From Candidatus Adlerbacteria bacterium (GTDB lineage: Bacteria > Patescibacteriota > Minisyncoccia > Phycocordibacterales > SBAW01): DNA of 64,000 nucleotides. Numbering within the stretch: the stretch's first letter is position 1; every line of letters starts with the position of its first letter. The notes under the pieces were generated by a model. It saw only the letters and a program-made list of their open reading frames with translations. It ran no database searches and was not told the DNA's origin. Shown in pieces: positions 57,852-60,800 of this stretch. Made by a program: the position numbers and the translations under genes. The stretch covers positions 107,138-171,137 of the forward strand of contig JAPLUW010000001.1 of assembly GCA_026397405.1 (NCBI GenBank), given 5' to 3'.

Positions 57852-60800
57852 TTTGAGAGAAAGGAACATTTGATCGATTAGTACTTCTCAGCTCAACACC
57901 TTGCGGTGCGTACACTTAAAGCCTATCAACGTCATCATCTCTAACGGATCTTAATGAATACTCATCTTAGAGTCGGCTTCGCGCTTAGATGCTTTCAGCG
58001 CTTATCCAATCCCGACATAGCTACCCTGCGTTGCTCTTGGCAGAACAGCAGGTAGACCAGTGGTCAGTTCACTCCGGTCCTCTCGTACTAGGAGCAAATC
58101 TCTTCAATATTCGACGCCTGCAGTAGATAGGAGACCAACCTGTCTCACGCATCATACTTTGGACTCACGACGAAGTGAGTCCTTCCTCTATTACTAGAGG
58201 GATTGGACTGTATCATTACGCCTAAGGCGTAGTTAACGTTCAGTCTCTACGGGCATCTTTCGAATTCCCTCGGTATTGTCCTCACCATTACATGTAGGAT
58301 TCCACCGATATAAGTTAACTTCTCACTATATATTTCTATATAATGCCGCCGTTTCCTATTAACATTTCCATACAACATTGTTAGCGTTGTACTTTTCTCT
58401 CGACGGTTCAGATTGTCTTAACGCCAAAACTTTTAGCATCAAAACGGTCTGAACCCAGCTCGCGTATCACTTTAATTGGCGAACAGCCAAACCCTTGGGA
58501 GCTTCTTCACCCCCGGGATGTGATGAGCCGACATCGAGGTGCCGAACTCCGCCGTCGCTATGGACGCTTAGGCGGAACTAGCCTGTTATCCCCAGAGTAG
58601 CTTTTATCAGATAATCTTCCACCGCGTCTAATACGGATGGTCGGTTCACTATGGTCTGCTTTCGCACCTGCTCGGCATTCACGCCTCGCAGTCAAGCACC
58701 CTTTTGCCATTGCGCTATCGGCACGGTTTCCATTCGCGCCTAGGGTACCTTAATACACTCCTCCGTTACTTTTTAGGAGGATAGCGCCCCACTAAAACTG
58801 CCCACCAGATACTGTCTCGACAAGGTTTTGCCCTGCCGGTTAGCGCATACAACTAGAAAGAATGGTATTTCACTGACGAGTCCAGTACAACCAAGATCGT
58901 ACCTTCAACCTCTCCCATCTATGCTACGCAGTCACGTCGTATACGCAATATCAAGCTACAGTAAAGCTTCTGGGGTCTTTTCGTCTATCTGCAGGTAACC
59001 GGCATCTTCACCGGTACTGTATTTTCACCGAGCTGTGCTCCGAGACAGTTCCCCAGTCGTTACACTATTCGTGCGCGTCTGAACTTACCAGACAAGGAAT
59101 TTCGCTACCTTAGGACGATTATAGTTATCGCCGACATTCACCAGGGCTTACACAAATCACCACACCATCTTGCGACAGTGCAACGTCCGTGGTTGACCTT
59201 CTGGCATTGGTCAAGTGTCACCCCCTATACATCCTCTTACGAGTTCGCAGGGAGCTGTGTTTTTGGTAAACAGTCGCCAGGGATACTTTCGCTGCGGCCC
59301 CTTCCTCTTGCGAGGTTAGGGCAGGCCTTATTCCGAAGGTACGGCCGATTTTTTGCCGAGTTCCTTGGAGCACACTCACTCGTTCGCCTTACTCTACTCG
59401 AGCTGATCACCTGTGTCGGTTTGCGGTACGGACGTACGCATAGTTAAGTTTAGAAGTTTTTCTTGAAAGGCTCTTCACTGTCATCTCCTTCAGCCGAAGC
59501 CTGGGATGTCCTCCATACTACGATTGTTGCAATAAAGCTGCATTCCGGATTTGCCTGGAATACCAATCTTAAGCACAGAGACGTCAATCCAATAAGACGC
59601 GACAATTTGTTTCCTCCGTCCCTCCATCACCTATGCGCCGGTCAGGGAATATTAACCCTGTGTCCATCGGGTGCGGCTTTCGCCATACCCTTAGGCCCGA
59701 CTAACCCTTGGCTGATCACCATCGCCAAGGAAACCTTGATCTTTCGGCGTGCGGGGATCTCACCCGCATTGCGGTTACTTGTGCCTGCATTCTCACTTCC
59801 GTACGCTCCACACTGGCTCGCGCCTTATGCTTCATTGCAAACGGAATGCTCTCTTACCACTCACACTTCCCGAAGGAAATGCAAGTCCTCAGTTTCGGTA
59901 TAACGTTTTAGCCCCGATTATCTTTGGCGCAGAATCTCTCGATGAGTGAGCTGTTACGCTTTCTTTCAAGGATGGCTGCTTCTAAGCCAACCTCCTCATT
60001 GTCTGTGAAATTCCACCTCCTTGTGATGCACTTAACGTTAATTTTGGGACCTTAACTGGAGATCAAGGACTCTTCTCCTTTTGTACGGTGGAGCTTAGCC
60101 CCCACGTACTAACTGCCGCATAGCACAAACGGTATTCGGAGTTTGATAGGACTCACGAGCTTGCGCCCTGTTGAGTCCTTCCAGTGCTCTACCCCCGTCT
60201 GTCAATTGATGCGACGCCAGCCCAAAAGCTGTTTCAGAGAGAACCAGCTATTACAAGGTTCGATTAGCTTTTCACTCCTTACCACAAGTCATCCGAGAGT
60301 TTTGAACGGCTCAACGGTTCGGGCCTCCAGAATGATTTCTCATTCCTTCACCCTGCTCATGGTAAGCTCACCTTGCTTCGGGTCTTATGCGTACTACAAA
60401 CGCGCTATTCACACTCGGTTTCCCTTCGACTCCAGGCTCATCGCCCTTAGTCATACGCAGTACACATAAACTCGCAGGCTCATTCTTCAATAGGCACGCT
60501 GTCGAGGTCTTGCGACCTCTTCAACTCTTTGTAGACATATGGTTTCAGATCTATTTCACTCCCCTCGCCGGGGTTCTTTTCACCTTTCCCTCACGGTACT
60601 TGTTCACTATCGGTCTTTGAAAGTATGTAGCCTTACCGGTTAGTTCCGGCAGATTCGCTCAAGCCATTCGTGTCTTGAGTTACTCAAGGACAATGAACAA
60701 AGTTGTTTTGATTTCGCCTACAGGGCTTTCACCTCCTAGGGCCCTGCTTCCCAGCAGGTTCGGCTATCACAACAATTTGTAACTTTGTTTCTGCTCGAGG

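Follow-up and report, generated by a model that had tools for sequence, protein, structure and literature searches.

The 23S ribosomal RNA (rRNA) gene in the 64,000-nucleotide (nt) stretch of Candidatus Adlerbacteria DNA analysed here, hereafter the window, is interrupted by 294 nt of additional sequence, and the question raised by this locus is what the interruption is and how the two halves of the rRNA might be joined across it. We conclude that positions 58150-58443 of the minus strand are very probably a group I intron devoid of any open reading frame (ORF), which lies after U2593 (E. coli numbering) in the 23S rRNA of a bacterium of the Candidate Phyla Radiation (CPR) and which would splice itself out by the standard pathway. 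The host gene is a complete bacterial 23S (57857-61155; Rfam RF02541, 2355 bits, model positions 1-2925, and alignment with E. coli rrlH), measuring 3299 nt with the intron and 3005 nt in the exons alone, and Rfam places a 5S gene directly downstream of it. All features described below map to the minus strand, and intron nucleotides are numbered so that nucleotide p corresponds to window coordinate 58444-p.

The first-pass annotation had described an AT-rich and strongly structured insertion at 58150-58443, close to E. coli position 2593, preceded by an exonic U, terminated by a G and too short to encode a homing endonuclease. This description proved accurate throughout. Specifically, when the window 23S was aligned to E. 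coli rrlH with MAFFT, a single 294-nt insertion appeared immediately after E. coli 2593, within helix 93, which adjoins the peptidyl-transferase centre. Read on the minus strand, the 5' exon runs ...GGGUUCAGACCGU up to 58444, the insert runs from UUUGAUGC to ...UAUGAUG at 58150, and the 3' exon resumes with CGUGAGACAGG...; a single-base shift of either boundary would break conserved exon sequence, so that the coordinates are exact. The upstream exon base is U, and the terminal base of the insert is G (the omega-G, G294). In addition, the insert has a GC content of 40%, compared to 50% for the exons, reaches -87.6 kcal/mol when folded alone (z = -5.5 versus shuffled sequences), and no ORF overlapping it is longer than 45 amino acids.

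The same annotation had proposed a candidate group I intron, to be checked with the Rfam group I model and by a search for the P1-P10 pairings, and both agree with the proposal. The Rfam family RF00028 (Intron_gpI) matches 58184-58383 over the full model (positions 1-253) with 62.0 bits (gathering score 50) and with an E-value of 2.6e-13 for the whole 64-kb window; furthermore, a complete set of P1-P10 pairings can be drawn, with covariation support in homologues. An Rfam scan of 58100-58500 at E<=1 returned nothing besides RF00028 and the large-subunit rRNA, and a group II intron was rejected on the lack of any domain V/VI match in that scan. Two other candidates were discarded as well: an intervening sequence (IVS) of the RNase III type, as the insert ends share only 3 base pairs (bp) in the minimum free energy (MFE) fold and a ribozyme core is present, and the remnant of a homing endonuclease gene (HEG), as no ORF exceeds 45 amino acids and the L6 loop is a GAAA tetraloop.

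To which introns is this insert related? Scanning one genome per species with a pattern composed of the 3' exon and the J8/7-P7 3' strand led to 89 loci, mostly in Patescibacteria/CPR metagenome-assembled genomes (MAGs), and about 70 of the 89 contain an insertion of 270-830 nt at the identical rRNA position. Family A, found mostly in Saccharibacteria, follows an exon ending in ...GAACGU, begins with AAAUUACAUUGCGUUC, contains about 65 extra nt between P7 and P3' and often encodes a single-motif LAGLIDADG protein. Family B, defined here, follows an exon ending in ...GACCGU or ...AACCGU and includes the window intron. R1, a covariance model trained on 13 family B introns but not on the window sequence, found one match in the 64-kb window, at 58183-58355, scoring 156.1 bits (E 1e-36). 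About 38 genome loci exceed 100 bits with R1, and the window intron falls in the middle of the range of the top-scoring family B members (about 100-183 bits). A GGC/GUC pairing that RNAalifold had put into R1 clashes with P7 and involves invariant columns only, and we regard it as an artefact.

At the exon level, the closest 23S genes come from three Candidatus Adlerbacteria MAGs, L034 (92% identity), L073 (89%) and L009 (86%), each with a family B intron inserted at this position. Judged from these nearest 23S relatives, the host is a CPR bacterium close to Candidatus Adlerbacteria; the first-pass annotation had named introns in rRNA as a hallmark of CPR genomes. The intron itself is only about 63-67% identical to the Adlerbacteria copies, the nearest found being those of L073 and L009 (about 66%). 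As regards mobility, a LAGLIDADG ORF occupies L6 in L059, a relative from family B, and L086 also encodes a LAGLIDADG protein. Because relatives carry a single-motif LAGLIDADG ORF in L6, where the window intron has a tetraloop, the latter is an ORF-less and immobile copy, one of the HEG-less introns in a large family of the CPR. The locus has matches in the Logan assemblies of SRR20698652, SRR20698644 and SRR25046532, but the contigs reached there through two flanking proteins all break at or inside the 23S gene and are uninformative on intron-less alleles. As a separate observation, the 23S genes of L064, L037, L051, L045 and L080 each show many distinct matches to the intron model (7 in the Dormibacterota MAG L064), compared to one in the window 23S, which suggests that several relatives carry multiple group I introns in this gene.

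We drew the core fold manually, using standard pairs only in the window intron, and assayed it on A1, in which 16 family B introns from CPR genomes are aligned with MAFFT. When the fold from P2 to P9.1, inclusive of the P3/P7 pseudoknot and of P9.0, was laid on A1, 84.6% of the cells were paired, compared to 34-39% when the partners were slid by 1-3 columns. Compensatory changes were observed in 37 of the 63 pairs, and none of 500 shuffles reached the observed values. RNAalifold, used blind, recovered P2, P3, P4, P5, P6, P8 and P9.

Specifically, P2 (nt 99-120; 58324-58345) is a 9-bp hairpin with compensatory changes in 8 of its 9 pairs, capped by a GAAA tetraloop which is GNRA in all homologues. 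The 5' strand of P3 (nt 124-130; 58314-58320) pairs with nt 207-213 (58231-58237), with 4 compensatory pairs out of 7; its 3' strand lies 3 nt after P7, leaving no room for P7.1/P7.2. The P4-P5 domain (58270-58308), also placed by the Rfam alignment, comprises P4 (nt 136-141/169-174), which is 100% paired in A1, and P5 (nt 145-165), with 5 compensatory pairs, connected by A-rich J4/5 and J5/4 segments. P6 (nt 175-193; 58251-58269) is the short GAAA-capped hairpin at the site of the LAGLIDADG ORF of L059, and P8 (nt 214-226; 58218-58230) shows compensatory changes in 4 of 5 pairs. On the 3' side, the 5' strand of P9.0 (AUC, nt 241-243) is followed by P9 (nt 244-259), the two spanning 58185-58203; P9 carries a GUAA tetraloop and is 98% paired, with 5 compensatory pairs. 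P9.1 (nt 262-283; 58161-58182), predicted by the MFE fold, is peripheral, variable and hard to align, and is 46% paired in homologues. The 3' strand of P9.0 (GAU, nt 291-293) and the omega-G (nt 294, at 58150) close the intron at 58150-58153, and P9.0 covaries in A1 through the combinations AUC/GAU, AUG/CAU, UUG/CAA and AUA/UAU.

The P7 helix, of which the search pattern had fixed the 3' strand only, deserves a closer look. Its 5' strand, consisting of G197, the bulged A198 and G199-G203 (58241-58247), is 100% paired with CAGUCC (nt 234-239), which together with J8/7 (AAUGAUA) occupies 58205-58217, is near-invariant in family B and is placed by the Rfam alignment as well. Across A1, P7 is invariant with the exception of its last pair, where A-U and G-C alternate (11:5). 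G197, the bulged A198 and the presumed guanosine-binding pair G199-C238 are conserved in 16 homologues out of 16, and GAUA.AGUCC is invariant. The span from P7 to P7' is 36 nt in the window intron and about 100-118 nt in the family A introns with the extension. Membership of the IA type or of IA3 (cyanobacterial, Cr.LSU-like) was rejected, P7.1/P7.2 being absent. The first-pass annotation had named the well-known L2593 group I intron and homing-endonuclease target site; the site agrees with the alignment to E. coli, with the refinement that the window intron lacks the P7.1/P7.2 elements of the cyanobacterial introns of this I-CreI-type site.

The next question is how the 5' splice site would be recognised. 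The last four nucleotides of the 5' exon, ccgu (C2590-U2593 equivalents; 58444-58447, with the splice-site U at 58444), are the 5' strand of the proposed P1. Their partner would be GCGG (nt 95-98), the second half of a putative internal guide, AACG/GCGG, at nt 91-98 (AACGGCGG in the window; 58346-58353), whose ACG (nt 92-94) would serve P10. The ccgu/GCGG pairing places a u·G95 wobble at the splice site in 16 of 16 homologues, while for P10 the (C)ACG segment matches the 3' exon cgu(g) over 3-4 bp. No segment in the 5' half of the intron is better conserved than the ACGGCGG motif, which is invariant in A1. In addition, it is present in all the scanned L2593 introns outside family A, a set picked by the 3' end pattern only, with the exception of L042 (GCGGCGG). 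In L086 and in more than 100 metagenomic L2593 introns, retrieved with an exon-plus-motif pattern, it is separated from the splice site by only 4-30 nt and precedes, in the same order as in the window, P2 with its GNRA loop, an A-rich J2/3, P3, AUA and P4; where the gap to the splice site is 4-9 nt, ACGGCGG is on that account the sole possible P1. In family A hosts (exon gaacgu, with A at -4) the guide reads GCGUUC, so that exon -4 a/c matches guide U/G across families. Since the layout of the guide is canonical, the motif is kept and homologues with a short L1 have it close to the splice site, the catalytic P1 is most likely ccgu/GCGG, with ACG/cgu as P10. Nucleotides 1-90 would then represent an expansion of the P1 loop, giving an L1 of 94 nt. 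The guide is thus unusually placed, 91-98 nt into the intron instead of adjoining the 5' splice site.

This expanded L1 contains structures of its own. It starts with P1a, a 12-bp hairpin (nt 1-27; 58417-58443) present in the MFE fold and showing compensatory changes in homologues. The adjacent element, E' (nt 28-39, ACAAUCUGAACC; 58405-58416), is antisense to exon positions -12 to -1; 10 of the 12 positions pair, and A28 faces the splice-site U. A variable hairpin (nt 51-74; 58370-58393) follows in the MFE fold, with compensatory differences versus L073 in A1. In the MFE structure predicted for the precursor, exon -12 to -1 pairs with E', stacked on the hairpin of nt 1-27. RNAalifold also recovers this exon-E' helix, in which 10 of 17 pairs are compensatory, including those of exon -8 and -6, and exon and E' vary together as cagac/GUCUG, caaac/GUUUG and uagac/UCUA. 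A mismatch at exon -3 is kept in 15 of 16 homologues. The same precursor fold pairs exon GCUG (-16 to -13; 58457-58460) with CGGC (nt 93-96; 58350-58353), lengthening the helix outward through a pairing whose sides are both invariant. A further segment, CCGUCG (nt 38-43; 58401-58406), resembles the ligated junction aCCGU/CGug and can pair with the guide as a P2-like alternative in the MFE fold of the intron alone; the idea of an exon-junction mimic was abandoned, this pairing being 61% formed, devoid of compensatory changes and overlapping the end of E'.

Short forms of L1 were also observed. At least 120 metagenome loci (L094-L213), here family C, contain L2593 introns starting with CAA... 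in which ACGGCGG is 4-30 nt from the splice site, and those with loops of 25-30 nt already possess GAACC, the complement of exon GGUUC, together with a CGAG motif. The short loops of family C may thus grade stepwise into the 94-nt L1 of the window.

Several observations weigh against an active intron with ccgu/GCGG as its P1. This P1 is short, being only 4 bp. The pairs of P1 and P10 are invariant on both sides, so that they draw their support from conservation and homology, with no covariation within the family. Within the exon-E' helix the splice-site U is opposite A in 14 of 16 homologues, and nearest-neighbour energetics prefer this helix over the nested P1 by about 15 kcal/mol. Furthermore, a single Rfam model does not allow the subgroup (IA, IB, IC or other) to be assigned, and splicing, for the window copy as for the members of its family, is deduced from sequence. 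Because the nested P1 would cost these 15 kcal/mol, the active state would require either a partly opened exon-E' helix or an H-type pseudoknot, in which exon -12 to -5 would be held by E' and exon -4 to -1 by the guide. The mismatch kept at exon -3 would loosen the helix at the splice site, which is compatible with both ideas.

Observed are the sequence elements described above, their homologues and the covariation among these, and from them we infer a splicing activity, the choice of P1 and a role of E'. In the first step, a free guanosine, accommodated in the P7 pocket (G199-C238 with the bulged A198), would attack the phosphate after exon U2593, the splice-site U being presented in the short P1 formed by exon ccgu and GCGG (95-98) through its U·G95 wobble. 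Subsequently, P9.0 (nt 241-243/291-293) would move G294 into the same P7 pocket, and P10 (3' exon cgu with ACG 92-94) would align the 3' exon for ligation. The freed 5' exon would then attack the phosphate after G294, regenerating an intact helix 93 with the predicted ligated junction ...CAGACCGU/CGUGAGACAG.

In this pathway E' would be an extra tether for the 5' exon or a folding switch. A bolder proposal, which we put forward tentatively, is that E' is a dedicated second exon-binding element, antisense to 23S nt 2582-2593 and co-evolving with the exon, which acts as a tether or as a lock. As a tether, it would hold the cleaved 2.7-kb 5' exon by a pseudoknot with the 4-bp P1; as a lock, it would keep the precursor inactive in its U-A-paired state, pending release by folding, by a protein or by ribosome assembly. 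If true, this would amount to bipartite or switchable exon recognition in a group I intron, for which we found no earlier description; a non-exhaustive literature search for an exon-antisense L1 element returned nothing relevant. Should the covarying exon antisense ahead of the guide prove functional, it would illustrate how a substrate can be held or gated within a folding rRNA by a ribozyme whose P1 is a minimal 4 bp.

Among the alternative explanations, the one that survives best, though we consider it rather unlikely, is that of a true group I intron whose splicing depends on a protein in trans: a LAGLIDADG protein of the maturase type, or an RNA chaperone of the host, might for instance have to open the exon-E' helix. 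The energetic preference for an inactive-looking fold speaks in its favour, and the LAGLIDADG proteins of the relatives could double as maturases, an idea raised in a recent survey of CPR rRNA insertions (PMC11270868). However, no LAGLIDADG gene was seen elsewhere in the window, where no search aimed at one, and the window contains one group I intron only. In addition, the compact core with GNRA loops in L2 and L9 resembles that of small self-sufficient bacterial introns.

An improbable alternative is that the long exon-intron helix, made of exon -12 to -1 and nt 1-27 with nt 16-39, is itself the catalytic P1, with a U-A pair at the splice site, continuing with P2 (38-43/93-98) and P2.1 (99-120) in an IC1-like topology. 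This arrangement was weighed first on the basis of the MFE fold and of covariation, as it is the predicted ground state, is recovered by RNAalifold and contains the compensatory pairs reported above, exon -8 and -6 included. Moreover, group I introns permit the order P1-J1/2(AA)-P2-P2.1-P3, and the close relative L034 has a U·G at the splice position. It was demoted on the invariance of ACGGCGG and on the position of this motif in introns with a short L1. Ribozyme biochemistry requires a U·G wobble at the splice site for the first step, whereas this helix sets the U against A in 14 of the 16 homologues and against G in a single one. Its guide allows no P10, the P2 that this arrangement requires is the pairing found above to be 61% formed and without compensatory change, and homologues with an L1 of 4-9 nt lack the helix altogether, yet retain ACGGCGG as the sole possible guide.

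Least probable of all is a decayed, non-splicing intron, kept in the 23S, excised by RNases to leave a fragmented 23S, or residing in a pseudogene: the loss of the endonuclease gene removes selection for mobility, the ground-state fold buries the splice-site U in a Watson-Crick helix, the same 23S hosts another IVS-like hairpin insertion and Simkania is reported to have a 23S group I intron that is not spliced (as the title of reference 28 in PMC11270868 indicates), but the P7 pocket, J8/7, J4/5 and omega-G are intact and match the family invariants, the R1 score is mid-range for the family (156 bits in 100-183), P9.0, relevant to the second splicing step alone, covaries, the insert ends form no RNase III-type stem, the 23S is otherwise full length, and a 294-nt insert or a nick beside the peptidyl-transferase centre would hardly be tolerated.

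In conclusion, the group I intron proposed by the first-pass annotation is supported, and its description can be refined to that of a HEG-less member of a large CPR family whose guide would lie 91-98 nt into the intron. The locus is to be annotated as one 23S gene with an intron at 58150-58443, which rRNA predictors and phylogenetic pipelines must remove.

Other features of the rRNA genes were recorded along the way. A second insertion in the 23S, of about 101 nt (about 60781-60881, minus strand, after E. coli ~278), forms a near-perfect hairpin of about 28 bp (z = -5.6). It is common to the Adlerbacteria MAGs L073 (82% identity) and L009 (73%), while other CPR 23S sequences align to its flanks only, and it looks like an IVS or an expansion segment, not an intron. 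The pairwise alignment with E. coli also shows a 17-nt insertion after E. coli ~1503 (about 59526-59542) and deletions near E. coli 1715 and 2791. The rRNA genes of the window are unlinked: the 23S-5S cluster (57617-61155, minus strand) lies about 12.9 kb upstream of a 16S-tRNA-Ile(GAU)-tRNA-Leu(CAG) cluster (42105-44719, minus strand) on the same strand, with about 12 ORFs between the two clusters. The 16S gene is 1451 nt long and has no insertion.

How does the window intron compare with known systems? The L2593 site is shared with the Cr.LSU intron of the Chlamydomonas chloroplast, the LAGLIDADG-encoding I-CreI intron. LAGLIDADG-bearing introns at L2593 have been described in Synechococcus sp. 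C9, S. lividus C1 and Thermosynechococcus elongatus (Haugen et al. 2007, PMC1995217). The window intron has in common with them the site, the group I fold, a simple P5 and a short P2, and its relatives likewise carry single-motif LAGLIDADG genes, whereas the cyanobacterial introns are about 745 nt long, encode an endonuclease and possess a P7.1/P7.2 of about 65 nt (PMC1995217), none of which applies here. Within the CPR, the survey by Tsurumaki et al. (2024, J Bacteriol; PMC11270868) assigns 45% of 968 CPR 23S insertions to group I by RF00028, reports that CPR rRNA insertions are removed from transcripts, and lists 2593 among the recurrent sites bearing LAGLIDADG_1, with shorter ORF-less forms too (23IS12-14 group). 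Host group, site and detection by RF00028 are the same as for the window intron, and in the portions of that survey available no secondary structure, guide assignment or description of an L1 expansion was found (PMC11270868). That group I introns have spread at the I-CreI-type site of CPR 23S genes is already documented, and the window intron adds an ORF-less copy without altering this picture; it is a diverged member of an already catalogued intron class, of which only the exon-antisense L1 was not found described. In general architecture, its compact core, the very short pairing of exon and guide and the GNRA loops of P2 and P9, which could dock into P8 and P5, may recall small bacterial group I introns such as those of the Azoarcus and Anabaena tRNA genes (subgroup IC3). 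The window intron differs in its host gene, its 94-nt L1 and its P9.1. As for E', a second pairing of the 5' exon that competes with P1 or adds to it is known from P(-1) of the Tetrahymena rRNA intron and from the two exon-binding sites of group II introns; the putative partner in the window intron lies instead inside L1 and covaries with the host exon.

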